Shown: piece after piece, positions 5,054 to 56,388 of the stretch | Position numbering within the stretch: position 1 is the stretch's first letter | Layout: each line of letters starts with the position of its first letter | Assembly (NCBI GenBank): GCA_934096175.1 | Contig: CAKOLG010000001.1 | Coordinates: 117,736 to 181,735 of the forward strand | DNA: 64,000 bases | Direction: 5' to 3' | Source of the DNA: an uncultured Bacilli bacterium | GTDB lineage: Bacteria > Bacillota_I > Bacilli_A > RF39 > UBA660 | The notes under the pieces: generated by a model | Databases searched by the model: none | What the model saw: the letters and a program-made list of their open reading frames with translations, nothing else | Told to the model about the DNA's origin: nothing | Program-made: the position numbers and the translations under genes

Positions 5054-5236
5054 CTATATTATTAACTTAATAACTAAAATAGCCAAAATCCCACTTATTC
5101 CTAAAAAAGAACTTAACGCAATCGTATAAACATTTATAGGAATAACAATATTTATTAAACTAAATAAAACATTTACACTATAAATACCGAAAATACCTAA
5201 ACAAATTTTCTTCAAAATTTTACCACAAATTTTCAT
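5054..5236 (-). CDS. bofA: BofA-like pro-sigma-K processing inhibitor (small membrane protein)
   Basis: The C-terminus INVYTIALSSFLGISGILAILVIKLII matches the BofA signature (INLVTTAISGVLGIPGIAALVVIK). It lies downstream of recR, as in B. subtilis. Confidence 0.6.
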   Translation of the reverse strand: MKICGKILKKICLGIFGIYSVNVLFSLINIVIPINVYTIALSSFLGISGILAILVIKLII

Positions 5237-7877: not shown

Positions 7878-8303
7878 TTACCTCATATTATCAAAAAAAT
7901 CTGTTAATAAATTTTTCAGCTCCGATTTTTCTTTTTCATAACCCTCAACTTCACAAAAAAAATCATTACTACTACTGTGATTAACACCACTTTTCAAAAA
8001 ATAATATACTCGTTTAATTCGACATTCCTCAATAATCGCCTTACACATTTTACAAGGCTCCAAAGAAACAACCATATAACAATCATTCAAACGCCAATCC
8101 TTAACCTTCTTCTCAGCCTTTAAAACACTGATAACCTCTGCATGACCCAAAACATTTCTTTTCCCTTGCCTATTATTAAAACCAGAACTAACAATACAAC
8201 CATTACAATCAAAAACAACTGCGCTAACAGGAACTTCTCCTTTCCTTAATGCTTTTTTAGCATTACTAACTAACAGATTTAACACTTTCTTATTAAACTC
8301 CAT
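7878..8303 (-). CDS. tadA: tRNA-specific adenosine deaminase
   Basis: CDA motifs HAEVISV and PCKMC. The likely ATG start at 8303 (MEFNKKVL) is used rather than the track's GTG at 8327. Confidence 0.8.
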   Translation of the reverse strand: MEFNKKVLNLLVSNAKKALRKGEVPVSAVVFDCNGCIVSSGFNNRQGKRNVLGHAEVISVLKAEKKVKDWRLNDCYMVVSLEPCKMCKAIIEECRIKRVYYFLKSGVNHSSSNDFFCEVEGYEKEKSELKNLLTDFFDNMR

Positions 8304-8315
8304 AAAATCACCATT

Positions 8316-8400
8316 AAAAAAGTGCACACAAACAGTGACTGATATGGCTGCTATCTTCCGATCCTGACCAAGTTACAATATATTTGTTGCACAAACATAT
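8316..8400 (-). ncRNA. ffs: signal recognition particle RNA (small 4.5S/scRNA-type), candidate
   Basis: The minus-strand sequence ACUUGGUCAGGAUCGGAAGAUAGCAGCCAUAUCAG matches the universal SRP domain IV motif (GGUCAGGNCCGGAAGGNAGCAGCCA), including a GGAA tetraloop. The closing stem is GUGCAACAAA...UUUGUGUGCAC, followed by a U-run. It sits next to tadA/dnaX, as scr does in B. subtilis. Confidence 0.65.
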
Positions 8401-8431
8401 ATTACAAAAATATTAATAAAATGTCAACATA

Positions 8432-8447
8432 TGTTTCACGTGAAACA
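8432..8447. promoter_or_regulatory. parS centromere-like site (TGTTTCACGTGAAACA), copy 1
   Basis: Perfect 16-bp palindrome identical to the Firmicutes parS consensus tGTTNCACGTGAAACa. It is origin-proximal. Confidence 0.7.
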
Positions 8448-8654
8448 TTAATCACATTTCAAAAAAATTTTCACATAATTTCTCGTCATAAAAAAGGAGC
8501 AATTTTAGGAATCGAAATGATTAACATATCAGCTTTAACTAATTCGATGCCTAATTTCAAAAACAAGCATATTGATCAAATCCTTTTATTTATTAGCAAA
8601 AATCCATTTTTAGTAGAATAAAAAAAGATATTTTTTCACTATTTTTATCAACAA

Positions 8655-8670
8655 CGTTTCACGTGAAACA
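8655..8670. promoter_or_regulatory. parS-like site (CGTTTCACGTGAAACA), copy 2, one mismatch
   Basis: Same palindrome with one mismatch in the first base. Confidence 0.6.
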
Positions 8671-8710
8671 TAAAAAAAAGAAACTGACAGCAAAATATCA
8701 ATTTCTCCAA

Positions 8711-8726
8711 TGTTTCACGTGAAACA
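8711..8726. promoter_or_regulatory. parS centromere-like site (TGTTTCACGTGAAACA), copy 3
   Basis: Perfect 16-bp palindrome, 12 nt downstream of the gyrA stop. Confidence 0.7.
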
Positions 8727-8738
8727 TATTATCAACAT

Positions 8739-11213
8739 CTACTCTGAAACATCTTGATTAATTACATCAGATGATGAAATTTCAACATTTTCCAAATTAG
8801 CTTCTTCTTTTTCTTTCTCAACCAAACTTATAGTAGCAACAGTATGATCATCCTTTAAATTAATTAACCTTACACCTTGAGTAACTCTTCCTAAAACAGA
8901 TATTTGCTCTAAAGGCATTCTCATAACCATACCAGCATCTGTAATAATAACAATATCAGAATTAGGTTTAGCTATCTTAAACGATGCAATATCACCATTC
9001 TTTTCAGTAATACTTAAAGCCTTAACACCTTTACTTCCTCTATTTGTTTGTCTATACTCACAAACATTTGTTTGTTTACCGTAACCTTTCTTAGTTACAA
9101 TCATCACTACATCATCATCTGAAGCTATTTCAGCCCCAATACAAGACGAATCATCTAAATCAATACCTTTTACACCAGAAGCTGTTCTTCCCATTATACG
9201 GACGTCTTTTTCATTAAATTTAACCATTCGGCCATTACTTGACCCAAGCAATACAAAATCATTTCCAGATGTCTTTCTAACAGCAATTAACTCATCATCT
9301 TCCCTTAAAGTTATACAAATTTTTCCACCAGATCTTATAGAATCAAATTCAGCAACTGCCGTCCTCTTAACAAGACCTGACTTAGTAACAAATAATAAAT
9401 TACTAACTTCTTCCTCAGGCGAAATCTTAATTATTGAATTAACCATTTCATCCTTTTCAATTTGCAATAAATTCACAACTGGCAATCCTTTAGACTGTCT
9501 ACTAAATTCAGGTATTTCATAACCCTTTAACCTATAAACCTTACCCTTATTAGTAAAGAATAATACATGATCATGTGTTTGAATATTAATCATATGCTCA
9601 ACAAAATCTTCCTCATTTGTTGCCATACCTTTAATTCCAACACCACCTCTATTTTGAGATTTAAACGTATCTGAAGTCGTTCTCTTAATATAACCCTTAT
9701 GAGTCAACGCAATAATAACATCTTCATTTGGAATTAACGATTCATCTTCTATATAATCAATCGCTGTCATATCAATCTTTGTACGACGTTCATCACCAAA
9801 CTTACTCTTTATTTCTAACATTTCCTCTTTTATTATATTTAATACTTTTGCCTCACTAGCTAGTATAGAACGTAATTCTTCAATTTCTTTCATCAATTCA
9901 GCTAACTCAGCTTCTATTTTATCTCTTTCCAAACCAGTTAATCTACGTAACTTCATTTCTAAAATTGCTTGTGCTTGAATTTCTGTCAAACCAAACTTAG
10001 TCATTAAACCAGTTAAAGCTTCTTGATCACTTTTAGATGCTCTTATTAACTTTACAACCTCATCAATATTATCTAAAGCAATTTTTAAACCTTCTAATAT
10101 ATGTGCTCTTTTTTCTGCCTTATCTAAATTAAATCTAGTTCTTCTAATAATAACCTCTTTTTGATAATCAATATACTTAAGCAAAATACTCTTTAAACCC
10201 AAAGTCTTTGGCGTACCTTGATCCAACATCAAAAATATTATTCCATAATTAGTTTGAAAATCTGTATGTTTATATAATTGATTTAAAATTACCTGTGGAT
10301 TAGCATCCTTTTTTAAAGTAATTGTTATTTTTACGCCGTTTTTTAAATCAGTATGATAATCTGTAATACCATCAATTATCTTATTATGAACCAAATCTGC
10401 TACTTTATTTTTTAATTCCAACGTATTTACGCCATATGGAACCTCATCAACAATTATATAATGTCTTCCATTTTTTTCTTCAATTGTAGCTTTCGCTCTT
10501 ATTGTAATTGAACCTCTTCCTGTTTCATAAGCTCTTTTAATGCCAGAATTTCCAAGAATTATCCCCCCTGTTGGGAAATCTGGTCCAGGAACAAACTTCA
10601 TCAAATCATCTAACTCAATATCAGGATTGTCGATAACTGCAACACAACCATCAATAACTTCACCTAAATTATGCGGTGGAATATTTGTTGCCATACCAAC
10701 CGCAATTCCCATTGTTCCATTAACTAAAATATTAGGAAATCTTGATGGTAATATAGCAGGCTCTCTTTCTGAATCATCAAAATTAGGTATCATATCAACT
10801 GTATCCTTGTTGATATCCCTTAATAATTCCAAAGATATTTTTGAAAGTCTAGACTCAGTGTAACGCATCGCTGCTGCCCCATAACCTTCAATATTACCAA
10901 AATTACCATGTCCATCAACTAACATATATCTATATGAAAAGTCTTGAGCCATTCTAACCATTGCTTCATAAATACTAGAGTCACCATGTGGATGATATTT
11001 ACCCATTACATCTCCGACAATTCTAGCACTTTTCTTATGTGGTTTATCTGGAGTATATCCAGACTCATACATCGAATACAAAATTCTTCTATGAACTGGC
11101 TTCAAACCATCTCTTAAATCTGGTAATGCACGTGCAACTATTACACTCATCGAATAATCCAAAAAAGAATCTTTAACTTCTTTAACAATATTATTTTGTT
11201 CTAATCTGTCCAC
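8739..11213 (-). CDS. gyrA: DNA gyrase subunit A
   Basis: AAAMRYTE catalytic-Tyr motif, QRGG-like box and C-terminal beta-pinwheel repeats. Adjacent to gyrB. Confidence 0.95.
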
Positions 11214-14336: not shown

Positions 14337-14786
14337 CTATTTTTTATCAATTTTTCTTAATTGTAGAGCTTCTTTTAATCTTGAACATCTGTATAATTGA
14401 TTATCAATAATTGCTGATGATACATCAACAAGAATCTTTTTCCCATTTTTAAGTTCTATAATTGTTTTATCCTTAAATTTATCTGGTTTAAAAATATGAG
14501 AATAACTCAACCAAGAACATTCTTCATTTTTAGGTGATAATGTTGGAAAAAAAATCAAATCAAAGCTTTCCTCTACAATAATTGGTACCTTATGCGTAAA
14601 ACCGATTATCTTCGATGTCCCCACCTGTCTTCCTTCTAATGAACTACCAAAGTATTCACAACTTTCTTCAACTATTTGTAATGGTGTTTTATCAACAACA
14701 AAAGAATTATCCTCCTCATAAACAATAGTTTTTTTATCTTTTGGAACTAACGCAATCGTATTTTTATTAATTTCATATGATTCCAT
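14337..14786 (-). CDS. comK: competence transcription factor ComK-family protein
   Basis: From the ATG at 14786 (strong RBS GGGAGG): MESYEINKNTIALVP...TPLQIVEESCEYFGSSLEGRQVGT...VPIIVEESFDLIFFPTLS. This aligns closely with B. subtilis ComK (ESYEVNGATIAVLP...KPLQIVDRSCRFFGSSYAGRKAGT...PPIMVDPSNQIFLFPTLS). Confidence 0.7.
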   Translation of the reverse strand: MESYEINKNTIALVPKDKKTIVYEEDNSFVVDKTPLQIVEESCEYFGSSLEGRQVGTSKIIGFTHKVPIIVEESFDLIFFPTLSPKNEECSWLSYSHIFKPDKFKDKTIIELKNGKKILVDVSSAIIDNQLYRCSRLKEALQLRKIDKK

Positions 14787-14913
14787 TTTAAAACCTCCCT
14801 TTCTTCCAAAATTTACCAACCTTTTAACAAATTTTATTGTCGAAAAAAATCGTTTTAAGTCGATAAAACGACAAAAAAGCAAAAAAATCGACAAAAATAA
14901 AAAAAATTACAGC

Positions 14914-16066: not shown

Positions 16067-16219
16067 TTTTTTTCCTTCTTTCTTATTTCTTTTATAAATT
16101 TTTTATTATTATTATAAAGTGAATAATGTTGATAACTTATTTTTTATCCACAAATATCGTCATTTTTTTAAAAATTAACTTGTTAATAAACCATAAAATA
16201 TTAACAATTAATTAACAAT
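16067..16219. promoter_or_regulatory. dnaA-dnaN intergenic AT-rich region with DnaA boxes (part of bipartite oriC)
   Basis: Perfect DnaA box TTATCCACA at 16144-16152 and a one-mismatch box (tgttgataa) at ~16128-16136. The region is very AT-rich, consistent with a DUE. Confidence 0.55.
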
Positions 16220-17593
16220 TTATAATTTTGCTTTAATTTCATTAATAATTTCTTTTAATTGAGAGTTACTTTTTAAATCTTCTTCAATTTTATCACATGC
16301 GTGAATAACAGTTGAATGGTCCCTACCCCCAAATTCTAAGCCAATTCGTGGAAAAGACTGATCTGTTAAAATTCTACATAGATACATAGCTAACATTCTC
16401 GGATAAGCAATATTAGCGCTTCTTTTTTTACCTTTTAAAACTTCAACCGTTAACTTGTAATAATCAGCAACTGCTTTTTGAATACTTACTATATCATTCA
16501 TTATATATGGATTTTTTGTTATATAATCTTTTAAAGCCTCATTTGTAAAATCCAAATCTATTTTTTCTGGCACACACATCGCCGTATATGCTACAAGCCT
16601 ATTAATTGCACCTTCCAAGCTTCTAACATCTGTATCACAATTATTAGCAATAAATTCTATCGCTTCATCAGTCATTTTATCCCCTATATTTAAATGTTTG
16701 ATCTTATCCTTTATAATTCTGCACCTTAAATCAAAATCAGGTGGATATATATCAACCGGTAATCCCCAAGCAAACCTACTTCTTAGACGTTCCTCTAAAA
16801 GCTTTAAATCTTCAGGAGATCTATCTGAACTTATAATAATTTGCTTATTTCTTCCATGTAAATCATTAAAAGTATGAAAGAATTCTTCTTGAGTTTTTTC
16901 TGCTCCAACTAAATATTGAATATCATCAATTATTAATACATCAATATTTCTATATTTATTTTTAAATTCATTTGCATAATCTAAAGAATTTTCATTAGAA
17001 TTGGCAATTCCTGTATAATCTTTTCTAAAATCATCACTAGTAGTATAGAGCACTTTTAAATTAGCATTATTTTCTGCAATATAATTACCTATTGCATGCA
17101 TTAAGTGAGTTTTGCCAAGTCCACTCTTTCCATATATAAATAATGGATTATATTGTACTCCAGGATTTTGCGCAACTGCAAACGCAGCTGTTCTTGCAAA
17201 TTTATTTGTATCTCCGACTACGAAGTTATCAAAATTTAATGATTTATTAAGGTTACTTTCATAAGGTTTAATCTCTTGTTTGTTGATAACTATTTCTTTA
17301 TCAACAACCTGATTAATTATTTGGTCTACATTTGATTTTATTTCATCTTCTAGTAAACACTCAATTTCTCTTTCGATACCTGTAACCTTTATAAAAGCAT
17401 CATTAATTAATTCATAATAATTTGATAAAAGCATACGTTTATGTAAAGACATAGGTACTTGTAAAATGATTTTTTTATCATTTATCTCATGTAATTTAGT
17501 TTCACCAAACCATGTACTAAATGATACAGGATGCAGTTCTTTTTTTATAATTTCGAGAACATTACTCCAAATATCATTTGAATTCAAAACCAT
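16220..17593 (-). CDS. dnaA: chromosomal replication initiator DnaA
   Basis: AAA+ Walker A GKSGLGKTHL and C-terminal DnaA-box-binding domain. The preferred ATG at 17593 (MVLNSNDIWSNVLEI) is used rather than the track start at 17656. Confidence 0.9.
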   Translation of the reverse strand: MVLNSNDIWSNVLEIIKKELHPVSFSTWFGETKLHEINDKKIILQVPMSLHKRMLLSNYYELINDAFIKVTGIEREIECLLEDEIKSNVDQIINQVVDKEIVINKQEIKPYESNLNKSLNFDNFVVGDTNKFARTAAFAVAQNPGVQYNPLFIYGKSGLGKTHLMHAIGNYIAENNANLKVLYTTSDDFRKDYTGIANSNENSLDYANEFKNKYRNIDVLIIDDIQYLVGAEKTQEEFFHTFNDLHGRNKQIIISSDRSPEDLKLLEERLRSRFAWGLPVDIYPPDFDLRCRIIKDKIKHLNIGDKMTDEAIEFIANNCDTDVRSLEGAINRLVAYTAMCVPEKIDLDFTNEALKDYITKNPYIMNDIVSIQKAVADYYKLTVEVLKGKKRSANIAYPRMLAMYLCRILTDQSFPRIGLEFGGRDHSTVIHACDKIEEDLKSNSQLKEIINEIKAKL

Positions 17594-17897
17594 CACCCCA
17601 CTTCGCACCAATTTGTACAAATATTTTAACGCAAGCTGTGGAAAAATAAAAGCCATAAATTATCTTTTTTTAGTAATTAACAGCTTGTCCACAAAGTTAA
17701 TAACAAAAATAATTCGTAAAATATTAGAAATAATATAGTTATTAACATTGTTAACAATTTTTAATTAACAAGTGAAAAAAGTTATCCACATATCCACAGG
17801 TAACTGTTGATAAAAAAATAAAAAATAGATTTTCTTGACAATTTTAATTCGTTAATATTATAATAAGGAAGCTTATTTAGATGTGGAGGTGTAATAT
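17594..17897. promoter_or_regulatory. oriC / dnaA upstream region with DnaA boxes and rpmH promoter
   Basis: DnaA boxes TTATCCACA at 17782-17790, TATCCACAG at 17791-17799 and TTGTCCACA at 17685-17693. There is a TTTTCCACA-like box on the other strand at ~17637-17646. The region lies between divergent dnaA and rpmH. Confidence 0.7.
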
Positions 17898-18023
17898 ATG
17901 AAAAGAACTTATCAACCAAATAATAGAAAAAGAGCAAAAAAACACGGTTTTTTCGCTAGAAAAGAGTCTAATATTTTAAATCAAAGAAGAAGTAAAGGAC
18001 GCAAAAGAATAGTTGTAAAATAA
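17898..18023 (+). CDS. rpmH: 50S ribosomal protein L34
   Basis: 41-aa [44 protein letters not shown]. It is absent from the ORF track (<60 aa) and has a GGAGG RBS upstream. Confidence 0.95.
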
Positions 18024-18048
18024 GCCACTGATAAAGTGGCTTTTTCTG
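18024..18048 (+). terminator. hairpin + T-run after rpmH (partial terminator/attenuator before rnpA)
   Basis: GCCACTgataaAGTGGC stem followed by TTTTTCTG. Confidence 0.5.
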
Positions 18049-18061
18049 TAATAAGGGTGAA

Positions 18062-19957: not shown

Positions 19958-19973
19958 TATTTCCCGGGAAATA
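19958..19973. promoter_or_regulatory. Noc-binding-site-like palindrome TATTTCCCGGGAAATA
   Basis: Contains a perfect 14-bp ATTTCCCGGGAAAT, identical to the B. subtilis NBS consensus. It lies 12 nt after the jag stop. The hairpin could also act as a weak terminator. Confidence 0.55.
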
Positions 19974-20060
19974 ATTTTTGATATACTATATATAACATAA
20001 TAAAAATATTTCCCAAGTACATAAATTGTGCTATAATACGAGCCAAAAGGAGTGAAGGCG

Positions 20061-24066: not shown

Positions 24067-25452
24067 ATGAATTTAGAGTCTGGTGTTCTTCAAGTACATA
24101 TTGAAGATATTATACCTAATAGATTTCAACCAAGATTAAATTTTAATGAACAAGGAATAAAAGAATTAGCAGATTCTATAAAAGAACATGGAATAATTCA
24201 ACCTCTTGTTCTAAGAAAATTAGGCGATAAATATGAAATAATTGCTGGTGAAAGACGTTACAAAGCAGCACAATTAGCTGGACTTTCAACTGTTCCAGCT
24301 GTTATCGCAAATATTGATGATAATAAATCGGCAGAAGTTGCACTAGTAGAAAACGTCCAAAGAAGAGATTTAACTGCAATAGAAGAAGCTAGATCATATC
24401 AAAGTTTACTAAATAAAGGATATTTAACTCAAGAACAATTAGCAAAAAGAATGGGTTTATCTCAACCAGCAATTGCTAATAAACTAAGATTATTAAACCT
24501 TGACGAAGAAGTTCAACAAGCATTATTAGACGAAAAAATATCTGAAAGACACGCAAGAACACTGTTAACAATTGAAGATAAAAACCAACAAAGAGAATGG
24601 TTACATCGTATAATTAATGAAAGGTTAACTGTTCGTCAGTTAGATTTAGAGTTAAAAAAAATGAAAGAAGAAACAAATCCAAATAATGAAACTGATGAGG
24701 AAGAAGTTCCTTTAGTAGAACCAGTACCTAGTATTGAAAATATAATTGCTAATGCTGAAGATATAAACTCACCAAAAAATAAAATGTCTCTAGAAGACTT
24801 AATGAAACCACAACAAGTAGTCAATGAAAACATCGAAACTCTTGATCCGCCAGAGCCACCAGAAAATAAGGTTGAAACTTTTACAAGTGCAACCAAGGTT
24901 CCAGAATTTAATATAGCAACCCCAAACTCTGCTAGCACATTAATATCTGAGGAAGATATCACCAATTTAAATAATGACACCGGAAAATTCTTTAACTTTT
25001 CTGACCAATCAGCAGAACCTAATTTTAAAGAAAATTTACGCACTAATTTCCAAAATGATTTTATTGATATGACTCAAGCATCAGATAATCAACCAACTGA
25101 AGTAGAAGAAACTCCATTAGAACCTACTGATGATATTACTAGCAACACACATACAGATTTTGTACCAAACTCAAATAACAAATTCTTTACTTTAAATAAT
25201 TCTGAAAATATTTCAAACAACCTTCCTCCTAAAAAAGATACATATATTGATCCAATGGATGCAGTAAATAACTTAACTCCAGAAAAGCCAAAACAAGAGG
25301 AAAAAGAAAATGTAACAGATTTAAAAAATGCAATTTTAAGTATTAGAAAATGTATTGAAAATTTGGGCGAAAAAGGATTTTTTATAGATGTTGAAGAGAT
25401 AGATTTCCAAGCAAATTATGAAATAAAAATAGATATTCATAAAGATAATTAA
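24067..25452 (+). CDS. noc: ParB/Noc-family protein with ~180-aa acidic low-complexity insertion/tail
   Basis: N-terminal ParB domain with IIPNRFQPR and GERRYKAA. The HTH region, IANKLRLL...ISERHARTLL, resembles Noc (ITERHAR) more than Spo0J. No soj/spo0J follows it. Confidence 0.7.
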   Translation: MNLESGVLQVHIEDIIPNRFQPRLNFNEQGIKELADSIKEHGIIQPLVLRKLGDKYEIIAGERRYKAAQLAGLSTVPAVIANIDDNKSAEVALVENVQRRDLTAIEEARSYQSLLNKGYLTQEQLAKRMGLSQPAIANKLRLLNLDEEVQQALLDEKISERHARTLLTIEDKNQQREWLHRIINERLTVRQLDLELKKMKEETNPNNETDEEEVPLVEPVPSIENIIANAEDINSPKNKMSLEDLMKPQQVVNENIETLDPPEPPENKVETFTSATKVPEFNIATPNSASTLISEEDITNLNNDTGKFFNFSDQSAEPNFKENLRTNFQNDFIDMTQASDNQPTEVEETPLEPTDDITSNTHTDFVPNSNNKFFTLNNSENISNNLPPKKDTYIDPMDAVNNLTPEKPKQEEKENVTDLKNAILSIRKCIENLGEKGFFIDVEEIDFQANYEIKIDIHKDN

Positions 25453-43622: not shown

Positions 43623-44936
43623 ATGGGAAAAGTAAATGTAACAAAAAGAGGGAATCTATATCAATATAGATTTGAAATAGCTCCACAAGGGGGAGTTAGA
43701 AAATTTATTAACAAATCAGGTTTCAAGACAAAACAGGATGCTTATGTTGCTGGGATGAAAGCATTTAATGAATATATGAATACAGGTAAAAAATTTTCTC
43801 CTAATACATGTTCATATTCAGATTTTTTAGATTATTGGATGGCTAATTATTGTCAAATTAATCTAAGATATAATACGATAGAGGCATATAAAAGCATTAT
43901 TAAAAATCATGTTAAACCCAAATTAGGATTTTATAGGCTATCGCAAATAGATACAGCTACATTAAATGATTTTCTTACAGATGTGTTTTTGAATAAAGGA
44001 GTGTCAAAAAACTTTTTAAAAAGTATAATGAAAGTTTTAAAATCTTCATTTGCTTATGCTGAAGATGGTGTTGGATTCATTAAGCATAATCCAGCGTTGA
44101 AAATAAGATTACCAAGATATGATGGTCACGATGAAGATCCAGCTCATATTTTTACACCAGAAGAAATAGAAATGATTTTTAATAGATTTAAAAATAGTCA
44201 TTGTATATATTATGCTTTTTTAACAGCTTATTATACTGGACTGAGAGTTTCAGAAGTATTTGGACTGACATGGGAAGATATTGACTTGAAAAATAAGAAA
44301 TTAACTGTAAATAAAAATATTGTTGAAAAAAATCAAGTAGGTGGAACAAAGCACAGACTTATCAAAGGTCAAAGAACTACTGTTTGGTATTTTGGACCAT
44401 GTAAAACAAAAGCTAGCTATAGAACAATTGATATTGGAGATACATTAGTAGCAGCCTTAAAAGAATTTAAAGAAGAGCAAGAAATATATAAAGAACAATA
44501 TGGGGATTCATATATCAAACATTATGCAAAAGAAGTTTTAAATCAATATACAAATAAACCAGAAACTAAAATAGTTGATTGCAGTGCAGAAATTGATGTT
44601 GCTTTACCTGAAGTACATTTGGTATTTATAAAAAATAATGGGGCATTTGAAGGAAATAATACTTGCAAATATCCATTTAAAGTAATTCACTATGAGTTAG
44701 GAATACCTTGCAGATTTCACGATTTTAGAGATACACACGCAACAAGATTAATTGAAGCAGGAGCAGATATAAAAGCCGTTTCAAAAAGATTAGGACATAG
44801 TACAATTGAAACAACTTATAATATTTATGTAAGAGTTACAATTCAAATGGAAGAAGAAGTAGTTAGTAAATTTGAGGATTATGCAGACTCTTTAGAAATT
44901 ACTATTTCAAGAAAACCTACGGAATCAATTTCGTGA
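43623..44936 (+). CDS. int: tyrosine-type site-specific recombinase/integrase
   Basis: Catalytic domain with R...HDFRDTHATRLIEAGADIKAVSKRLGHSTIETTYNIYVRV (R-H-R-Y residues). N-terminal arm-binding-like domain. First gene of the accessory region. Confidence 0.85.
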   Translation: MGKVNVTKRGNLYQYRFEIAPQGGVRKFINKSGFKTKQDAYVAGMKAFNEYMNTGKKFSPNTCSYSDFLDYWMANYCQINLRYNTIEAYKSIIKNHVKPKLGFYRLSQIDTATLNDFLTDVFLNKGVSKNFLKSIMKVLKSSFAYAEDGVGFIKHNPALKIRLPRYDGHDEDPAHIFTPEEIEMIFNRFKNSHCIYYAFLTAYYTGLRVSEVFGLTWEDIDLKNKKLTVNKNIVEKNQVGGTKHRLIKGQRTTVWYFGPCKTKASYRTIDIGDTLVAALKEFKEEQEIYKEQYGDSYIKHYAKEVLNQYTNKPETKIVDCSAEIDVALPEVHLVFIKNNGAFEGNNTCKYPFKVIHYELGIPCRFHDFRDTHATRLIEAGADIKAVSKRLGHSTIETTYNIYVRVTIQMEEEVVSKFEDYADSLEITISRKPTESIS

Positions 44937-45021
44937 TAACAATAGTTATTATACGAATACGGAACTGAACAATAGTCAGTTCTTTTTTTAATGTTTAAAA
45001 ATAAAAGAAAGGGTGATTATA

Positions 45022-45816
45022 ATGGCAGTATTTAAAATAGAGAAACAAAAGAATTATACAGTTATGAGTAATTATCATTTGCAAGATAGAAATCTTTCTT
45101 ATAAAGCAAAAGGACTATTATCATTCATGTTAAGTTTGCCTGAAGATTGGGATTACTCTATGAAAGGATTAGTAGCAGTTAGTAAAGAAAATATTAAAGC
45201 TATAAGAACTATACTTAATGAACTTAAAGAACATGGCTATTTAGAAATACAACAATCAAGAGGAGATAAAGGATATTATAAGTATGAATATATTATTCGT
45301 GAAATTCCATTAGAGGTTGAAAAACAACATGATAATCCAGATACCCAAAAAGGGAATACCGTTGAAGGAGATGCCGAAAAGGATACCCAAATAAATACTA
45401 ATAAACAAAATACTAAAGAACAAATAGTTAAAAGAGTTAAAGAAAATTTACCATTTGTCGATTTAGATGAATTAAATCCTTTAACTCTTTATTTAATTGA
45501 AAAAAATTATATAGATGAGTATGATACTGATATATATAATTACGACAATCTTTTTGAGGATTTATTGCAACAAGGGCATTTATATAAAGATTTAGTTAAA
45601 ATGACACATTATATTGTACCAATAGTTGTTTCAAGACATTTTATTGATGAGAATGGTAATAAAGTAGAGAATAAGTTTGGGTTCTTTCAAGGAGCAATTA
45701 ATAATTGCATTGAAAGATTAAGAATAAATGATAAATTAGAAATAGATACAGAAACTGGTTGGTTTAAGTACCTTGAAATTGAAGAGGAAAACGACATTTA
45801 TGATAGAGATTATTAA
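45022..45816 (+). CDS. replication initiator-like protein (RepA_N/DnaD-like winged-helix N-terminus)
   Basis: LSYKAKGLLSFMLSLPEDWDYSMKGLVAVSKENIKAIRTILNELKEHGYLEI resembles the Firmicutes plasmid/ICE RepA_N motif. Confidence 0.5.
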   Translation: MAVFKIEKQKNYTVMSNYHLQDRNLSYKAKGLLSFMLSLPEDWDYSMKGLVAVSKENIKAIRTILNELKEHGYLEIQQSRGDKGYYKYEYIIREIPLEVEKQHDNPDTQKGNTVEGDAEKDTQINTNKQNTKEQIVKRVKENLPFVDLDELNPLTLYLIEKNYIDEYDTDIYNYDNLFEDLLQQGHLYKDLVKMTHYIVPIVVSRHFIDENGNKVENKFGFFQGAINNCIERLRINDKLEIDTETGWFKYLEIEEENDIYDRDY

Positions 45817-45832
45817 AAAATAAAAAAATATG

Positions 45833-46234
45833 TTATTTCATATTTTTCAAAACATTATGTAGAATATCTAATTTTTCAGAATCAGAATTCACTATAATAC
45901 TATGTATTACTTCTAAGTCTTCTTTTGATAGATTATATAGTTCATTATTAATTTGAGCTATAAGAATATCAGTATCGTGGTTATAATTGTTGCTATTATT
46001 TTTTTCTTTATACTGTTCAATTAATTTTTGAAAATCAATCATATTCATTTTCATTCCTTTAGCTATTAATTCAGTATAAGTCATGGAAATACCAACTTTG
46101 CCATACTTTTTTTTCATAATTTTACTCATATAGGCTTTACTAATTCCACTTTCTCTTGCAAACTGTGTAGGCGTAATTTTATGAATTTTGCAATAATCAG
46201 AAATTATAAACCTGATGGCTTCTTCTTTAGTCAT
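45833..46234 (-). CDS. XRE-family HTH transcriptional regulator (repressor-like)
   Basis: N-terminal HTH (ITPTQFARESGISKAYMSKI). It is divergent from the rightward island genes and has an operator-like inverted repeat in the shared intergenic region. Confidence 0.65.
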   Translation of the reverse strand: MTKEEAIRFIISDYCKIHKITPTQFARESGISKAYMSKIMKKKYGKVGISMTYTELIAKGMKMNMIDFQKLIEQYKEKNNSNNYNHDTDILIAQINNELYNLSKEDLEVIHSIIVNSDSEKLDILHNVLKNMK

Positions 46235-46292
46235 TTTTATCTCCTTTCGTTATAATCATATCATTAACATTGTACTATTTTTTTATAATATT

Positions 46293-46351
46293 GTCTACCA
46301 TTGTGAACTTAATTCATAAATAAAGCCTTAAAAAAGTTCACGACAGTAGAC
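46293..46351. promoter_or_regulatory. operator-like inverted repeat GTCTACCATTGTGAACTT / AAGTTCACGACAGTAGAC
   Basis: Near-perfect 18-bp arms (46293-46310 and 46334-46351) between the divergent XRE gene and the rightward operon. Confidence 0.55.
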
Positions 46352-46473
46352 ACAAAAAGAAAATAATGATAAAATATTTTATATAGTATTAAACTATATA
46401 TTTGAAGTGGAGGAGTAAAGTAATGAAAATAGTAAGATGGGTGATACTTTCATCCTGACTATTAGAAAGACAG

Positions 46474-46668
46474 GTGAAATTTTTGAATAAGGGGCAGTCT
46501 TCAAAACAGATGAGTTGTATCAAAATTTTAGTTGCAAATAAAAATATAGAATTAAGTACAACAAGCCAATTGGATGATGAATCTGTGATTCAGATCTTGG
46601 AAGTATGTCTAAAGCAGTTGAGGGAGAAGGCATCACAAGAAGCAGTACCAATTGGAAAGGAAAAATAA
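46474..46668 (+). CDS. hypothetical small protein
   Basis: ORF only. Start uncertain. Confidence 0.3.
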   Translation: MKFLNKGQSSKQMSCIKILVANKNIELSTTSQLDDESVIQILEVCLKQLREKASQEAVPIGKEK

Positions 46669-46669
46669 A

Positions 46670-46972
46670 ATGACTAAAGAAGAAAAAAATGCAGTAAAAG
46701 AAGTAGAAGTAGTTTTGGGAGTAAAAATTGGAAAGTATCTTGAAAAAAAGCAAGATATACCTTATGAAGTAATGGAAGAAGTTGTAAAAAAGATTTTGGA
46801 AATTGAAGCAGATTACAATAAAACGAAAAAAGAACTTTTATTTTGTAATTCTTCAGCAGTAAAATTAGAAAGACTATTAGAAATAATTGGTACTGTGAGT
46901 ACAATTTCAGTTGAAGATGAAGAATCCTTAGATAAAACTTTAGATGCTTTAGATAGAATATTAAATTCATAA
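46670..46972 (+). CDS. hypothetical protein (acidic, helical)
   Basis: ATG after RBS GGAAAGGAAAA. No motif recognised. Confidence 0.4.
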   Translation: MTKEEKNAVKEVEVVLGVKIGKYLEKKQDIPYEVMEEVVKKILEIEADYNKTKKELLFCNSSAVKLERLLEIIGTVSTISVEDEESLDKTLDALDRILNS

Positions 46973-47086
46973 AATACTGAAATGTGTACGAACTGTATAG
47001 ATATTCTATACAGTTTTGTTTATAAAAAAAAATAAAAATAAATTATTGACTTTTATTAAATAAAAGGTTATTATTTTAGTATAAAG

Positions 47087-47104
47087 AGTTTACTATCGTG
47101 AACT
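47087..47104 (+). repeat. AGTTTACTATCGTGAACT motif copy (operator half-site-like)
   Basis: Identical 18-mer repeated at 47206-47223. It is closely related to the arms of the 46293-46351 inverted repeat (ACTNTCGTGAACT core). Confidence 0.5.
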
Positions 47105-47205
47105 GCTTTAAATTTGTTGGAGGTGGTAGATGTTATTGTGTTTTGAAAAGTCATTATAAACTTTTCGCATTTAAATGTAGTAATATATTTTATTTTTAAT
47201 CAAAT

Positions 47206-47223
47206 AGTTTACTATCGTGAACT
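47206..47223 (+). repeat. AGTTTACTATCGTGAACT motif copy 2
   Basis: Exact direct repeat of 47087-47104, in a 470-bp ORF-free region. Confidence 0.5.
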
Positions 47224-47445
47224 AAAAGAGAGGTGATTAAATAAACTACAAAGAGAAGGAAAGGTATAAAATATATAATACCTTATCTGATAACCATGGA
47301 TATTTTCTAACTATCATTAAAGTAATAAATAACAAAGTTTATTATTTATTTGATGGGGATGATGAAATAAAATTCTTTGAAGTTGGTAGTCAATTTGAAT
47401 TCGATTTAATAAGGATAATTTAAAAGATTCGAGAGGGGAAACAAA

Positions 47446-47709
47446 ATGAAGTTTTCAAGTGAAAATAGTAAAATCCCTGATTGGATATTGCATCATTTAA
47501 GAAAATATGGCAATTGTTGTTGTGGCAGAGATATAGTCAAGAAAATCGGTAGAGAAAAAATTATAGAAGTTTTGAAACAAGAAGGGTATCCATGTATTCT
47601 TAAAATAATATATGAAAATAAATATAGATATAAGCGAAGAGTAAAATACCCATTAGATGCTTATTATATTTTGGAGATAGAATGTTTGGTAAAAAGTTAT
47701 TATATATGA
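47446..47709 (+). CDS. hypothetical small Cys-rich protein upstream of and overlapping mazF-like gene (possible non-canonical antitoxin)
   Basis: 87 aa. Its 3' end overlaps the toxin start by 4 nt. It contains CCCGRD and is neither a RHH nor an AbrB fold by eye. Confidence 0.35.
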   Translation: MKFSSENSKIPDWILHHLRKYGNCCCGRDIVKKIGREKIIEVLKQEGYPCILKIIYENKYRYKRRVKYPLDAYYILEIECLVKSYYI

Positions 47710-48029
47710 AAAACTTTAAAAAAGGAGATATATTTTTAGCTGAATTAAATGATTCCTACAATCATGTTCAAAACGGAATAAGACCTTGTTTAATTGTTCA
47801 AAACAATCAGGGTAATACTTTTTCGCCAACACTAATTGTTGTACCGTTAACAACAAAAATTAAAAAGACTAATATGCCTGTACATGTTGTGATAACTCCA
47901 TATCAAATGGTTTTGTGTGAATGTATTTTAACTATTTCAAAGAAGCAAATAATTTCTTACATTAAAACATTGGATGAAAAAACTATGAAAAAAGTAGATG
48001 AAGCTTTATCCGTATCATTAGAGATTTAA
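47706..48029 (+). CDS. mazF: MazF/PemK/EndoA-family endoribonuclease toxin
   Basis: KGDIFLAELNDS...GIRPCLIVQNNQGNTFSPTLIVVPLTT...MPVHVVI...MKKVDEALSVSLEI matches B. subtilis EndoA (RPVLVIQNDIGNRFSPTAIV...LPTHVEI...MDKVDEALQISLAL). Confidence 0.75.
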   Translation: MKNFKKGDIFLAELNDSYNHVQNGIRPCLIVQNNQGNTFSPTLIVVPLTTKIKKTNMPVHVVITPYQMVLCECILTISKKQIISYIKTLDEKTMKKVDEALSVSLEI

Positions 48030-48078
48030 AAAGGGAGGAAAAAACATTAAAACAAAGGTAAAGCAGTTTTATGAAGAC

Positions 48079-48636
48079 TTGTTTAGTAGTAGTTCAGGGA
48101 AGTATTGGTGTAATGAAGGTAATAATAAAAGAATGCGTAATTATCATAAGTTATCATTTATTTTAAAAGTAATAGAAAATGTTTTACTATTATCATTTAT
48201 TCTATATTGTTTATGTTTATCTACAAATACTATATTTTATCTATTTGATAGATTAAAGTATTGCAGCGAGGGAATAGCTTTGATGAACATAGATACTTTT
48301 AAAAAGTTTGTCTATGATACTTATATTATAACTTTTATTATGTCGTTGTTTGTAGTTCTATATGTTAGTAGAAAAAGGAAATACTCTTTAAAAAAGATTG
48401 TTTTAATAATGATTAAAGGATTATTATTTTTACCAATCAGCTCACTATTAACTTATAATTTTGTGATGTTAGGCAGTTTAATGAGAAGTTTCTATTTAGC
48501 AGTAATTATTGCAGTATTAGTATTTGCTATTGATTTTTTAATAAAAAGAATTGATAGTTTATATGATTTGGCAGTAGGTAGTACAGATGTTAATAAGAAT
48601 AGAAAAGGAGAAAGCAAAGTATGCAAGAAAAAGTAA
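48079..48636 (+). CDS. hypothetical multi-TM membrane protein
   Basis: Four hydrophobic segments. Start uncertain. Confidence 0.4.
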   Translation: MFSSSSGKYWCNEGNNKRMRNYHKLSFILKVIENVLLLSFILYCLCLSTNTIFYLFDRLKYCSEGIALMNIDTFKKFVYDTYIITFIMSLFVVLYVSRKRKYSLKKIVLIMIKGLLFLPISSLLTYNFVMLGSLMRSFYLAVIIAVLVFAIDFLIKRIDSLYDLAVGSTDVNKNRKGESKVCKKK

Positions 48637-48638
48637 AT

Positions 48639-48878
48639 ATGAAAGGTAATGTTAAGTGGTTTAGTAGTGAGAAAGGATATGGATTTCTCTCATGTAGTGA
48701 AATAGAAAATGATATATATGTACATTTTTCAGATATACAAATGAAAGGATTTAAAACTTTGGATGAGAATGATTCAGTAATTTTTGATTATGACGAAGAA
48801 AAGCAAAAAGCAGTAAATGTTCGCAAAATAACTGAAGAAGAATCCAATGCAGAAGAAGATAATACGGATTCTGAATAA
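48639..48878 (+). CDS. cold-shock domain protein with acidic C-terminal tail
   Basis: MKGNVKWFSSEKGYGFLS...VHFSDI has CSD RNP1/RNP2-like motifs. Confidence 0.7.
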   Translation: MKGNVKWFSSEKGYGFLSCSEIENDIYVHFSDIQMKGFKTLDENDSVIFDYDEEKQKAVNVRKITEEESNAEEDNTDSE

Positions 48879-49339
48879 TGATTAATATTTTTGATAAAGA
48901 AATTATATCAAAAATAGATATGGATAAAACAGTTATAAAAGGAAAGAAAATTTGTGAATTATATCAACCTTTAGTTGAAAAAAGGTTAAGACAACTAAAT
49001 ACTAAAGCTTTTAATTCAGCAAGTATAGTTGTATTCTCTGGAGCTTCCACGGGTTCAACTTCATCTGATAGATTGTTAAAAAGTTTATCTTGGAATGAGG
49101 ATCAGATAGCAAATTATATAAGAAGCATTTTTAGAATTCAAAACGAAGACAGAACAATTAGAGAGTTTTTGAGAATGAAATGTTTATATGGCTATACGGA
49201 TAGAGAAATTTCTGATAAACTTGAAATATCAGAAAGAACACTTAGAAGATATAAAAACAGAGCATATTTCTATTTAGCTGTTTATTCAAATCAAGTGGAA
49301 TTTATTTATGAAAGGACTTATCATTTCTACTGGGATTAA
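48878..49339 (+). CDS. ArpU-family / sigma-70 region-4-like transcriptional regulator
   Basis: C-terminal YTDREISDKLEISERTLRRYKNRA HTH is typical of phage late-gene activators (ArpU/RinA-like). Confidence 0.5.
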   Translation: MINIFDKEIISKIDMDKTVIKGKKICELYQPLVEKRLRQLNTKAFNSASIVVFSGASTGSTSSDRLLKSLSWNEDQIANYIRSIFRIQNEDRTIREFLRMKCLYGYTDREISDKLEISERTLRRYKNRAYFYLAVYSNQVEFIYERTYHFYWD

Positions 49340-49401
49340 ATAGAATTAAATATTGTGGTAATTCATTACCACAAGGACATAGAAGTTTGGAGGAGCAAAT
49401 T

Positions 49402-50427
49402 ATGAAGCGTAGCTTAAAGATAGTAATACCTATTATAATACTAATTATATTTTTAGTAGGATTATTTATTGTATATAAAAATACATATAAAATAGAATTA
49501 AAAAAAGAAGAATTTATTTATGAATTAGGAGAAAAAATTAGTTCTGATGTATCTAATTATTTAAAAGATGCTGATGCTAATAAAAATATAAAAGATTATA
49601 AACTATCTTCAGAATCATTAAAGAAGGATAATGATTTATTTATCATGGATGAATTAGAGTTAGTTCCAGTAGGTGAGTATATAATAACTATTGATTACAA
49701 AAAGAAGAGTGTTGATTTTGTAATTAAAGTAAAAGATACTATTGCACCAGAATTTTCTTCATTTAAAGATACCATAGAAATTGAAGAAACAGAAGATAAA
49801 CTGGATTTAACTACTTATTTTAAAGCAGAAGACTTAACAAAAGTAAAACTTCTAATAGAAGGAGAATATGATCTTAAAAAAGTTGGAGAATATAAATTAA
49901 AAGTTGTAGCTGAAGATGAAAACGATAATATAACTTCAAAAGATTTTATATTAAAAATAAAAAAGAAAATAGAAGAGCGACCAAAAGCACCTGAAAAGAA
50001 ACAAACTACAAATAATTCAAAATCGCCAACACCCCCATCAAATAAACCATCTAACAATATATCTAATAACAATACTTCTGGTTCTCCTAAATATCGTAGA
50101 GATATTTCTAATTCCTTTGCCAACCAGATAAATATATATAGGGAAGAAAATGGTTTATCTGAGTTGCCAATTACTTCTGAAGCTCAATCAGAAGCTGATA
50201 GAAGGTCTAAAGAAATATCAATTAACTATTCTCATGATGGAGCAGGATATGGATTTGGTGAGAATATTGGTTATGGTGGAATAGGATCAGATTTTATTGC
50301 TGCATGGAAAAACAGTCCATCTCATAATGCAACAATGCTTAGAGAACAGAATGTTGCAATGGCAGTAAGTGTATATGAAGCAAACGGAATGTGGTATGCT
50401 GTAACTTCTTTTAGGATGAATTATTAA
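49402..50427 (+). CDS. membrane-anchored CAP (SCP/PR-1-like) domain protein with Ig-like region and Pro/Ser/Asn linker
   Basis: N-terminal TM. The C-terminus YSHDGAGYGFGENIGYGG...AAWKNSPSHNATML...WYAVTSF matches CAP/YkwD motifs. Confidence 0.6.
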   Translation: MKRSLKIVIPIIILIIFLVGLFIVYKNTYKIELKKEEFIYELGEKISSDVSNYLKDADANKNIKDYKLSSESLKKDNDLFIMDELELVPVGEYIITIDYKKKSVDFVIKVKDTIAPEFSSFKDTIEIEETEDKLDLTTYFKAEDLTKVKLLIEGEYDLKKVGEYKLKVVAEDENDNITSKDFILKIKKKIEERPKAPEKKQTTNNSKSPTPPSNKPSNNISNNNTSGSPKYRRDISNSFANQINIYREENGLSELPITSEAQSEADRRSKEISINYSHDGAGYGFGENIGYGGIGSDFIAAWKNSPSHNATMLREQNVAMAVSVYEANGMWYAVTSFRMNY

Positions 50428-50556
50428 CAAATTTATTTATTATTTAATTTTAATAGTAATCTAATAATTCATCAAAAGAATAGTATCTATCTTTTAATAT
50501 TTCTAACATTTTATTTGATTATTTAATTGGAAGAGTATACATTAGGACAATAAAAT

Positions 50557-50586
50557 AACACGATTAACTAACACCGTGTTTTTTTA
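50557..50586 (+). terminator. rho-independent terminator after CAP-domain gene
   Basis: AACACGattaactaacacCGTGTT stem followed by a T7 run, between convergent genes. Confidence 0.5.
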
Positions 50587-50600
50587 TAAGTTAAATATTA

Positions 50601-51671
50601 TTAATTTGTATATAATTTACTTAATATTTTTGTATTTTTAATTTTATAGATCAGGTACAAAGTAATAAATAATATTAATATACATATTGCAATAGATATA
50701 AAATAACTATAGTATATAAAGAAAATTAGATTAACTCCCCATATTAAATTAGCCAATTTAAATAAAATGATAGTTACTATATTATCTATTATAAAAATGG
50801 TATAAGTAAGATAAGTAACAGCTAAAAATACATTCCAAATTATTGACAGATTTGTATAACCAGATAATTTTAGTATAATTATTATTAATATTTTATCATT
50901 AATTAAATCATTTATAAATATGAATAAATTGATTATGAAAAGAAAAATAATTATAAAAATAAATGGTGTTATTATAGATAACAGGCTATTATATTCCTTT
51001 AACTCAGTTTGATAACTATTATCAAAAAGAGTAGCATTGATATTATGGCTTTTAAATATATTTATTAAATCATCAACTTGTTTTTGTTCGCTTACTTTTA
51101 TTAGAAATTCATTTTCACTATTTTGAATGGTTCTAATTATATTATCTGAAATATAAATTTTATTTTGAAGATTAGAATCTCTCTCTTTATAAAAGCCAAC
51201 AATTTTACAAGTTATTTTCTTTTCTTCTATTGATAGAACAATATTAGAATTTAAAATTTCTTTACTTAAATTTTTATATAAAGATTCAGGTATAATAATT
51301 TCATTATTCTTGTTATTAAATTCTTTTCCATTTTGTATACTGATTTCCTCAGTTGGCAAAATCGGAGTGAGCATTATACTTCCTAATTTTTCGTTATATA
51401 TGTTAATGCTTCCTATATAATAGTAAACTTTTTTTATGCCCTTATTTTTTAATATCTCATAAAATTGATCTTCATTTTCTTTGGTACTAAATGATGTATA
51501 AACTATTCTATTTTCAACTCGATTTTGGAGTTTAGGAATCAAATTCTTTGATATTTGAGCATAGGATTGAATAATTACTATTATAGATAAGAACAAACCT
51601 GATAATATAATATATGAAATAATTTGTCTTTTACTTAATTTTATGAATTCTTTTAATAATAGTGAATTCAT
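50601..51671 (-). CDS. ABC transporter permease, FtsX-like
   Basis: N-terminal TM, an extracytoplasmic domain and three C-terminal TM helices. Downstream of the ATPase in the same operon. Confidence 0.6.
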   Translation of the reverse strand: MNSLLLKEFIKLSKRQIISYIILSGLFLSIIVIIQSYAQISKNLIPKLQNRVENRIVYTSFSTKENEDQFYEILKNKGIKKVYYYIGSINIYNEKLGSIMLTPILPTEEISIQNGKEFNNKNNEIIIPESLYKNLSKEILNSNIVLSIEEKKITCKIVGFYKERDSNLQNKIYISDNIIRTIQNSENEFLIKVSEQKQVDDLINIFKSHNINATLFDNSYQTELKEYNSLLSIITPFIFIIIFLFIINLFIFINDLINDKILIIIILKLSGYTNLSIIWNVFLAVTYLTYTIFIIDNIVTIILFKLANLIWGVNLIFFIYYSYFISIAICILILFITLYLIYKIKNTKILSKLYTN

Positions 51672-52889: not shown

Positions 52890-53556
52890 CTATAATCTCC
52901 GTCCTTCCATTTTTTAGGTAAATAATTTCATCAGCATAATCTTTAATGATGTCATCATGACAAATAACGATCACACATTTATCTTGATTTGAGAGTTTTT
53001 TTAATATACTTAAAATTTTAATTGTGTTTTCTTTATCTAAAGAAGCTGTGGGCTCGTCAGCTAATATAATCTCTGGATTATTGCATAGTGCACGAGCAAT
53101 TGCAACTCTTTGTTGTTCTCCACCCGAAAGTTGATTTGGGTAATGCTTATTCCTGTTTTCTATTCCTAATGAATTCAATAAGTTATTGACTCTTTCAACT
53201 TTTTCTTTTTTTGTTAAATTTCTATTAGTATAAAGTGGTAAAATTACATTTTCTGTGACATTCATTGTTGGAATCAAATTAAAAGATTGAAATATATATG
53301 CTAATTTCGTTTTTCTAAGATTAGCTATATTTTTTTCTGATAATTTTGATGTATTATGTCCGTCTATTTTTAATGTTCCGCTTGTTGGTTCTATAAGAAG
53401 CCCAATTATTTGCATTAATGTAGATTTTCCACTTCCAGATTCACCCATAATTCCATACAATTTTCCTTCTTCAAACTTAATATTAATATCATCTAAAGCG
53501 TTTATGCATTTATTTTTAAATGAATATTTTTTTTGTACATTAATTAACTCTATCAC
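52876..53556 (-). CDS. ABC transporter ATP-binding protein (MacB/LolD/antimicrobial-peptide exporter type)
   Basis: Walker A GESGSGKST, signature LSGGEQQRVAIARAL and Walker B ILADEPT. Confidence 0.85.
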   Translation of the reverse strand: MIELINVQKKYSFKNKCINALDDINIKFEEGKLYGIMGESGSGKSTLMQIIGLLIEPTSGTLKIDGHNTSKLSEKNIANLRKTKLAYIFQSFNLIPTMNVTENVILPLYTNRNLTKKEKVERVNNLLNSLGIENRNKHYPNQLSGGEQQRVAIARALCNNPEIILADEPTASLDKENTIKILSILKKLSNQDKCVIVICHDDIIKDYADEIIYLKNGRTEIIDEIN

Positions 53557-53578
53557 TATTTACCTTCTTTCTTTTTAC

Positions 53579-53992: not shown

Positions 53993-54129
53993 TCTTTCAC
54001 CTCCTACTATATTATATTTATCATTATGAAAAAAAAGTAATGTAAAAGCACGAATAAATGATAATTTTTATGATATAATAAAATAGATAAATTTATTTAC
54101 TTAAATTATATGTGGAAGGTGACAATTTA

Positions 54130-54690: not shown

Positions 54691-54746
54691 TCAAAAATAG
54701 TTAAATATTTATGCTATAATGTATTTGTATAATATAGTGAGGAAAG

Positions 54747-54774
54747 GGTGATTAATAACAGGTGATTAATAACA
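54747..54774 (+). repeat. perfect tandem duplication 2 x GGTGATTAATAACA
   Basis: The 14-bp unit is repeated head-to-tail in the 5' leader of the downstream secreted-protein gene, just after a TGTATAAT extended -10. Confidence 0.6.
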
Positions 54775-54830
54775 ATAGTTTATTTTAATTTATTTATGTA
54801 TTCGGATGTAGAAATGGAGGAATGTTAATT

Positions 54831-56385: not shown

Positions 56386-56388
56386 ATA

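Follow-up and report, generated by a model that had tools for sequence, protein, structure and literature searches.

A probable origin-proximal parS array in the gyrA-SRP RNA spacer of an uncultured Bacilli bacterium and its relatives

Introduction

In the window (the whole 64-kb stretch of DNA analysed here; G+C content, 27%), the 338-bp spacer from the gyrA stop codon to the SRP RNA gene contains three copies of a 16-bp palindrome. A sequence-only reading had taken the palindrome for parS and the spacer for a site of ParB loading next to the replication origin. The locus therefore raises the questions of whether the copies form a centromere, which protein would read them and whether the promoter beside them is affected. 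Here, we report a computational analysis of the locus and of its counterparts in related genomes.

Results

Three parS Copies Lie in One Spacer

The features of the spacer and the genes that bound it are as follows.

7878-8285, minus strand: tadA, followed on the same strand by dnaX, ybaB and recR
8306-8400, minus strand: small SRP (4.5S-type) RNA gene, by RNA family match
8399-8427, minus strand: predicted SRP RNA promoter, sigma-70-type (TTGACA, 17-nt spacer, TAATAT); the hexamers align in relatives
8432-8447, no strand: parS-1, perfect TGTTTCACGTGAAACA, on the upstream side of the SRP RNA promoter at 4 bp from its -35 hexamer
8655-8670, no strand: parS-2, CGTTTCACGTGAAACA, just downstream of the gyrA terminator
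8672-8708, minus strand: probable intrinsic gyrA terminator between parS-3 and parS-2, with an A+U-rich stem of about 13 pairs and then eight U
8711-8726, no strand: parS-3, perfect TGTTTCACGTGAAACA, 12 nt past the gyrA stop codon and inside the gyrA 3' UTR
8739-11213, minus strand: gyrA, 1157 bits to the DNA gyrase subunit A model; its 3' end bounds the array

The palindrome was compared with the parS consensus TGTTNCACGTGAAACA. Two copies match perfectly and one has an outer-base mismatch. Since the single mismatch of parS-2 is at the outermost base, a perfect 14-bp core is common to all three copies. Beyond these three, no parS match was detected in the 64-kb window at up to three mismatches. 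In dinucleotide-preserving shuffles (n=100), the expected number of sites was 0.00 at up to one mismatch and 0.28 at up to three. A chance origin of the copies is ruled out by the absence of sites in the shuffles at up to one mismatch. Thus, the three-site cluster between gyrA and tadA that had been proposed (two perfect copies and one with one mismatch) was confirmed by the scan and the shuffles, and the consensus match bears out the identification of the palindrome as that of parS. The surrounding genes that had been named (gyrA, SRP RNA, tadA, dnaX and recR) agree with our annotation of the window.

Six independent assemblies of the species carry the three 16-mers without change, including two from divergent strains with about 11-14 differences in the remainder of the spacer. 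This invariance fits selection on the sites; on its own it is not significant, as about 1.9 changes would be expected in the 48 bp.

Read on the minus strand, the order in the spacer is parS-3, the gyrA terminator, parS-2, an A+T-rich stretch of 207 bp, parS-1 and the SRP promoter. The gyrA terminator region folds with -39.5 kcal/mol (z -7.8), a score that comes partly from pairing between parS-3 and parS-2. The terminator consensus scan passed over the gyrA hairpin because its stem has fewer than three G-C pairs. In the 207-bp stretch between parS-2 and parS-1, no recognisable feature was found with Pfam or Rfam. When the spacer was searched with Rfam at a permissive threshold, only the SRP RNA was detected; weak miRNA-like matches correspond to the parS-2/parS-3 hairpin. 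We regarded a 66-aa open reading frame across part of the spacer (8421-8621, plus strand), for which Pfam gave no match, as spurious.

The sites lie upstream of the SRP RNA gene and the tadA-dnaX-recR genes, as the earlier reading had stated, and parS-1 is 4 bp from the -35 hexamer of the SRP promoter. Given this adjacency, an effect of ParB on the expression of SRP RNA and tadA-dnaX is plausible.

The Array Is Close to the Replication Origin

The origin was located from the following features.

16144-18060, no strand: oriC region around dnaA, from DnaA boxes and GC skew
16220-17656, minus strand: dnaA, by annotation

Perfect DnaA boxes were found at 16144 and 17782, and a switch in the sign of the GC skew was observed near 18 kb. 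The origin was placed at about 16.1-18.0 kb of the window, and its distance from the parS array is 7.4-9.6 kb. The DnaA boxes and the GC-skew switch thus uphold the origin-proximal position that had been claimed for the cluster. The minus-strand genes at the origin are dnaA, dnaN, a comK-like gene, recF, gyrB and gyrA. The plus-strand genes start from 18062 and comprise rnpA, yidC, jag, mnmE, mnmG, rsmG and one ParB-family gene. The ComK-family gene (14337-14894, minus strand), which lies between dnaN and recF, is kept in all relatives covering the region; B. subtilis has yaaA/remB in this slot.

The Array Position Is Conserved in the Lineage

DnaA of the window is 83-84% identical to DnaA of Candidatus Coprovivens and of MAGs named 'uncultured Bacilli/Tenericutes' from human, mouse and other animal guts. 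As relatives, we used 20-kb loci around dnaA from GTDB representative genomes, 18 of which are in the lineage (DnaA 51-84% identical). The order gyrA-spacer-SRP RNA-tadA-dnaX is kept in all lineage loci that reach the region. Core parS was detected in the gyrA-SRP RNA spacer of 13 out of 13 genomes covering it, the window included, with 2-8 copies and a median of 3. Outside the array, no parS was detected in 375 kb of genome loci. Furthermore, in 9 of 11 relatives, a 16-mer of parS (seven cases) or of NBS, the site read by Noc (two cases), is positioned upstream of the SRP promoter, 4-12 bp from its -35 hexamer.

Metagenomes were scanned with the pattern NBS-N(16-46)-parS. At least 120 stretches matched, and 80 loci were fetched. 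All 80 carry parS, at 1-9 copies per locus, and at least one of gyrA, tadA, dnaX, ybaB and recR lies beside the array in all but one of them. These loci are on contigs of 19-35% G+C, and an array holds up to 9 parS and 7 NBS.

In 873 kb of clade DNA, 333 of the 334 parS sites fall within the post-gyrA array. A repeat dispersed around the chromosome, which the sequence-only reading had named as the finding that would speak against parS, was not seen in the 64 kb or in this clade DNA; with no copies elsewhere in the 64 kb and the clade sites confined in this way, a dispersed-repeat origin is improbable. The description of the cluster as unusually tight holds in comparison with B. subtilis and fails within the lineage, where three copies are the median. 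The conservation of the array position across a deep lineage argues for function. As judged from these sequences, the post-gyrA spacer is a conserved, lineage-wide candidate centromere address, at which the window has the median copy number.

parS and NBS Form Two Discrete Site Classes

The window also contains one site of the NBS class.

19958-19973, no strand: perfect NBS, TATTTCCCGGGAAATA, between jag and mnmE, conserved at the same spot in relatives

In relatives, the jag-mnmE NBS overlaps or abuts the mnmE promoter. This arrangement suggests that the Noc-type protein may autoregulate the mnmE-mnmG-rsmG-noc-like operon from the NBS on the mnmE promoter. The predicted mnmE promoter, with the extended -10 element TGTGCTATAAT, is located at 20007-20037 of the window, and its -35 position in relatives is overlapped by NBS or by the NBS half-site ATTTCCCA.

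Perfect NBS sites were also found inside the post-gyrA array, interleaved with parS, in 6 of the 13 genomes; the window's own array consists of parS only. In two species, the slot next to the SRP promoter is held by NBS instead of parS. Strict alternation of parS and NBS is frequent in the metagenome arrays, at periods of about 60-105 bp. From their sequences, the arrays appear to grow by tandem duplication. Examples of post-gyrA arrays in relatives are listed below.

L021, 19070-20460: post-gyrA array
L094, 2469-3010: strict parS/NBS alternation, period about 60-105 bp
L099, 4149-4440: the same alternation and period range
L110, 988-1250: the same alternation and period range
L159, 5105-5370: 7 parS at a 38-bp period
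L163, 13-320: the same alternation and period range as L094

In many relatives, the coding region of dnaX also contains perfect NBS sites (L012:20650, L014:11195, L023:14484 and 14592, and about 10 metagenome loci), and none was found inside dnaX of the window. In the literature searched, a published description of composite parS/NBS arrays was not found.

Since parS and NBS share a scaffold, we scanned with this scaffold while the two discriminating positions were left free in both half-sites. The 578 sites obtained consist of 333 pure parS, 231 pure NBS and 14 deviants, most of which differ in a single half-site base. A parS half joined to an NBS half was observed in one site only. The two classes also differ in distribution: 30 of 230 NBS lie outside the arrays, in the jag-mnmE spacer and within dnaX, as compared with 1 of 334 parS. 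The variants of parS follow the known degeneracy (T or C at position 5, often asymmetric), and no hairpin compensation was observed. The near-absence of hybrid sites and the differing distributions point to two separate readers. Two specific proteins would be expected to keep the site classes sharply apart and differently distributed, and this result supports a parS-specific Spo0J encoded elsewhere in the genome.

The ParB-Family Protein near oriC Is Predicted to Read NBS

One gene of the ParB family was available as a candidate reader.

24067-25452, plus strand: ParB-family gene, 461 aa, the sole ParB-family gene found near oriC

At the four specificity positions (173, 179, 184 and 201), ParB has R-T-A-G and Noc has Q-K-K-R (PMC7383237). 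Jalal et al. 2020 reported that, given K179 or K184, adenine 1 of NBS is read by Q173 and cytosine 6 by R201, and that true ParBs have R173 and G201 without exception (PMC7383237). The protein of the window possesses Q173, K179, N184 and R201. In the alignment, B. subtilis Spo0J reads R-H-T-G at these positions. The residue mapping was checked on PDB alignments. Among the best 120 homologues retrieved with the N-terminal 202 aa as the query, Q-K-[N/S/T]-R was present in 118 out of 118 members with a readable motif, and no ParB of the R173/G201 type was listed, only Noc-type orthologues. Thus, the protein is predicted to read NBS and not parS. The proposal that the only ParB-family gene in the window is Noc-like is borne out by these residues.

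The assignment as Noc has points on both sides. The NBS-type residues and the cognate NBS at 19958-19973 are as expected for Noc. The score against TIGR04285 (NCBIfam Noc) was 285.6 bits, below the cut-off of 315. Alignment scores with Geobacillus Noc (191 bits) and B. subtilis Spo0J (181 bits) were nearly equal. The GERRxK CTP motif is intact, and the protein has a long acidic linker. The open reading frame starts 6 residues before the ParB N domain, and an upstream start codon is impossible; Geobacillus Noc has about 27 residues ahead of this domain. The Noc-type N-terminal amphipathic membrane-targeting helix of 10 aa, which classical Noc requires (PMC8429893), is lacking in the protein.

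The linker contains a motif that is conserved across the family, IPNKFFNFLEDEqANM in relatives and GKFFNF and NNKFFTL in the window. This PNKFFNFLEDE motif appears to resemble the N-terminus of B. subtilis Noc, MKHSFSRFFGLGEKEQ, and may thus represent a membrane-targeting sequence that has changed its place in the protein. When the motif was used as a peptide query against PDB, no match was obtained.

No Second ParB Gene Was Detected near the Origin

We searched for the protein that would bind parS. Between about -28 kb (on the gyrA side) and +56 kb relative to oriC, neither a second ParB gene nor a ParA gene was found. When B. subtilis Spo0J and Soj sequences were used as tblastn queries, nothing was detected in the window, the 18 relative loci or the 80 metagenome loci. 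With the Noc-type paralogue as the query, tblastn detected no second ParB in the window, the 18 relative loci (20 kb) or the 80 metagenome loci. An exact-protein look-up in 10-kb extensions past both ends of the window did not find ParA or ParB. Because no second ParB lies near oriC and the paralogue is of the Noc type, we infer that a parS-specific ParB/Spo0J is encoded elsewhere in the genome. Such a gene content has a precedent in S. aureus, where Spo0J and Noc are present without Soj (PMC7142367).

Other Features of the Window

An OLE (ornate, large, extremophilic) RNA was detected at 34662-35146 (plus strand, 233 bits) in this gut-dwelling uncultured member of the Bacilli, and an L31 ribosomal leader at 35764-35794. 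The region 43623-63300 is an integrated element or a prophage remnant. It encodes a tyrosine integrase (43623-44936), an HTH protein and a MazF toxin (47682-48029), and near 57-62 kb it carries genes of the holin and lysin type. The genes flanking this element differ in another assembly. The sporulation genes spoIIR, spoIID and bofA were found at 32765-33274, 37724-38608 and 5054-5236, respectively, and a SpoVT/AbrB-like gene lies just beyond the left end of the window. The gene content suggests a spore-forming relative with a cell wall, though MAGs of the lineage are often labelled 'Tenericutes'.

Discussion

Based on these results, we consider that the three palindromes are probably a genuine chromosomal parS array, an origin-proximal centromere read by a parS-specific ParB encoded elsewhere. 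The identity of the sites as parS, their proximity to the origin, their confinement to one spacer, the deep conservation of the array and the existence of two discrete site classes are directly supported. For the binder, CTP clamping, SMC loading and the effect on the promoter, we infer the following from established systems. A parS-specific ParB/Spo0J dimer with R173/G201-type residues would nucleate on each parS. The dimer would bind CTP, close into a clamp and slide onto the flanking DNA. A ParB domain would thereby form at 7-10 kb from oriC, where it would serve to load SMC-condensin and to organise the origins or segregate them. Nucleation, the CTP clamp, sliding and SMC loading are established ParB biology (PMC7022226, PMC7333895). 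Several sites in one spacer may raise the loading rate, as in plasmid centromere arrays. Since no ParA gene was found near the origin, ParB-parS-SMC may work here in a ParA-less mode, in the manner of Streptococcus pneumoniae and Staphylococcus aureus; systems of this kind have been described (PMC7142367, PMC7022226). Because parS-1 abuts the -35 hexamer of the SRP/tadA-dnaX promoter, we also propose, as a secondary role, that ParB on parS-1 may modulate this promoter. Alternatively, the strong SRP promoter may bound the sliding of ParB.

The main alternative concerns the identity of the reader. If the lineage had no ParB-family protein but the Noc-type one at 24067-25452, both parS and NBS would be loading sites of this protein, which would have taken over the centromere role as a CTP clamp of dual specificity. 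No other ParB-family gene was found at about -28 to +56 kb of oriC or in the related loci, the two sites share one array and often alternate strictly, and the slot beside the SRP promoter is occupied by either site type in different species. Dual specificity is itself possible, as deep mutational scanning gave 82 such variants (PMC7383237). However, Q173, R201 and K179 belong to the NBS-specific class, the dual variants mostly have T or S at position 201, and R173 is invariant in parS binders (PMC7383237). Moreover, hybrid or mixed-half sites would be expected under a relaxed reader, whereas pure sites account for 564 of the 578 and only one mixes halves. The confinement of parS to the array, while NBS is also dispersed, suggests different readers as well. 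We therefore regard a single dual reader as unlikely, and a separate parS-specific ParB remains our preferred reading. Less likely again is that the sites are mainly operators, through which a ParB-family protein at parS-1 regulates the promoter of SRP RNA and tadA-dnaX-ybaB-recR and segregation is secondary or absent. KorB at its class I operators would be one model for such regulation. The end of parS-1 4 bp upstream of the -35 hexamer, the parS or NBS kept 4-12 bp upstream of the SRP -35 in 9 of 11 relatives and the NBS on the mnmE promoter all speak for regulation, and repression by intergenic parS has a precedent in P. aeruginosa ParB at parS3/parS4 (PMC7022226). For an operator, one site would suffice, yet the arrays hold up to 9 parS; parS-2 and parS-3 flank the gyrA terminator, far from any predicted promoter; and the sequence is exactly the universal chromosomal parS, at an origin-adjacent position that fits a centromere. 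Operator and centromere roles are not mutually exclusive.

The palindromes could also act as RNA or DNA hairpins, that is, as a structure of the gyrA 3' UTR, a terminator or attenuator, or a REP-like repeat without a link to ParB. In the predicted fold of the gyrA 3' UTR, parS-3 pairs with parS-2 around the terminator (z -7.8), and sub-threshold Rfam hairpin matches were found at these two sites. However, any two copies of a palindrome pair trivially, and parS-1 lies beyond the gyrA terminator. It is the sequence, not mere symmetry, that is fixed to the parS consensus over hundreds of sites, and the asymmetric T/C variants at position 5 break the pairing. Compensatory, sequence-independent covariation of stems was not seen across relatives, and the palindrome is absent from the rest of the 64 kb, with 333 of 334 clade sites in the array. 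Since the conservation is of sequence and not of pairing, an RNA-hairpin function was rejected, and the hairpin explanation as a whole is scarcely credible. In a more novel reading, the post-gyrA array would be a composite centromere, typical of a large clade of uncultured low-GC Bacilli from gut and rumen, that loads two paralogous CTP-gated clamps side by side. These would be a parS-specific ParB and an N-terminally truncated Noc-type protein whose membrane-targeting-like motif may have moved into the long acidic linker, and together they would tether and organise the origin without ParA. In its extreme form, the Noc-type protein alone would be the centromere-binding protein. We put the composite centromere forward tentatively, as a possible but doubtful reading.

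Three parS copies beside oriC, taken on their own, are the centromere of one more Firmicute, an ordinary type of element. At a fixed address, from gyrA to SRP RNA, centromere sites are maintained in the lineage as a plasmid-like array, which expands and contracts (1-9 copies) and in many species is interleaved with NBS. More novel are the composite parS/NBS arrays found in relatives, together with the Noc-type protein, which is atypical. Should ParB and a relative of Noc be loaded together at one locus, origin segregation would be coupled to membrane tethering and to the control of division in a way undescribed for model Firmicutes. The arrays would then also be a natural test bed for the parS/NBS specificity switch that has been studied by deep mutational scanning.

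Comparison with Known Systems

One of the closest known systems is Spo0J-parS of B. subtilis, which was reportedly described by Lin and Grossman in 1998 and by Breier and Grossman in 2007 (cited through PMC7142367). The 16-bp palindrome TGTTNCACGTGAAACA, the origin-proximal position and the Firmicute host are the same, and the CTP-clamp and SMC-loading mechanism is expected here. In B. subtilis, about 10 single parS are scattered through hundreds of kb, including one within spo0J, and the soj-spo0J genes adjoin noc. In contrast, all sites known here lie in one 338-bp post-gyrA spacer, and the surroundings of the noc-like gene lack soj and spo0J.

Plasmid systems offer a different likeness. F sopC is a centromere array of 12 x 43 bp, and RK2 has the KorB-OB class I operators. 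As in F sopC, ParB-family sites are in tandem at short, regular spacing; as in the RK2 operators, a site is placed just upstream of a -35 hexamer. However, F sopC and RK2 KorB are plasmid systems with their own site sequences, whereas the array here is chromosomal and consists of the universal parS.

The parS1-4 cluster of P. aeruginosa also has several parS grouped near oriC (PMC4368675; PMC7022226), and its intergenic parS upstream of genes directly repress promoters (PMC7022226). In that species, however, the sites are spread among several genes, ParA is present and a second site class is absent (PMC4368675; PMC7022226). S. pneumoniae and S. aureus are low-GC Firmicutes with parS near oriC and without Soj/ParA, and S. 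aureus keeps Noc (PMC7142367, PMC7022226). They differ in that their ParB genes are identified and their parS are dispersed (PMC7142367, PMC7022226).

With the Noc-NBS system, the lineage shares perfect NBS 16-mers and a paralogue that has Q173, K179 and R201 and the CTP-binding motif (PMC7383237, PMC8429893). Classical Noc carries a 10-aa N-terminal membrane helix, and the protein at 24067-25452 is without it (PMC8429893). Classical NBS are dispersed around the chromosome, with no reported arrays with parS (PMC7383237, PMC8429893), whereas relatives of the window carry both site types in one array behind gyrA.
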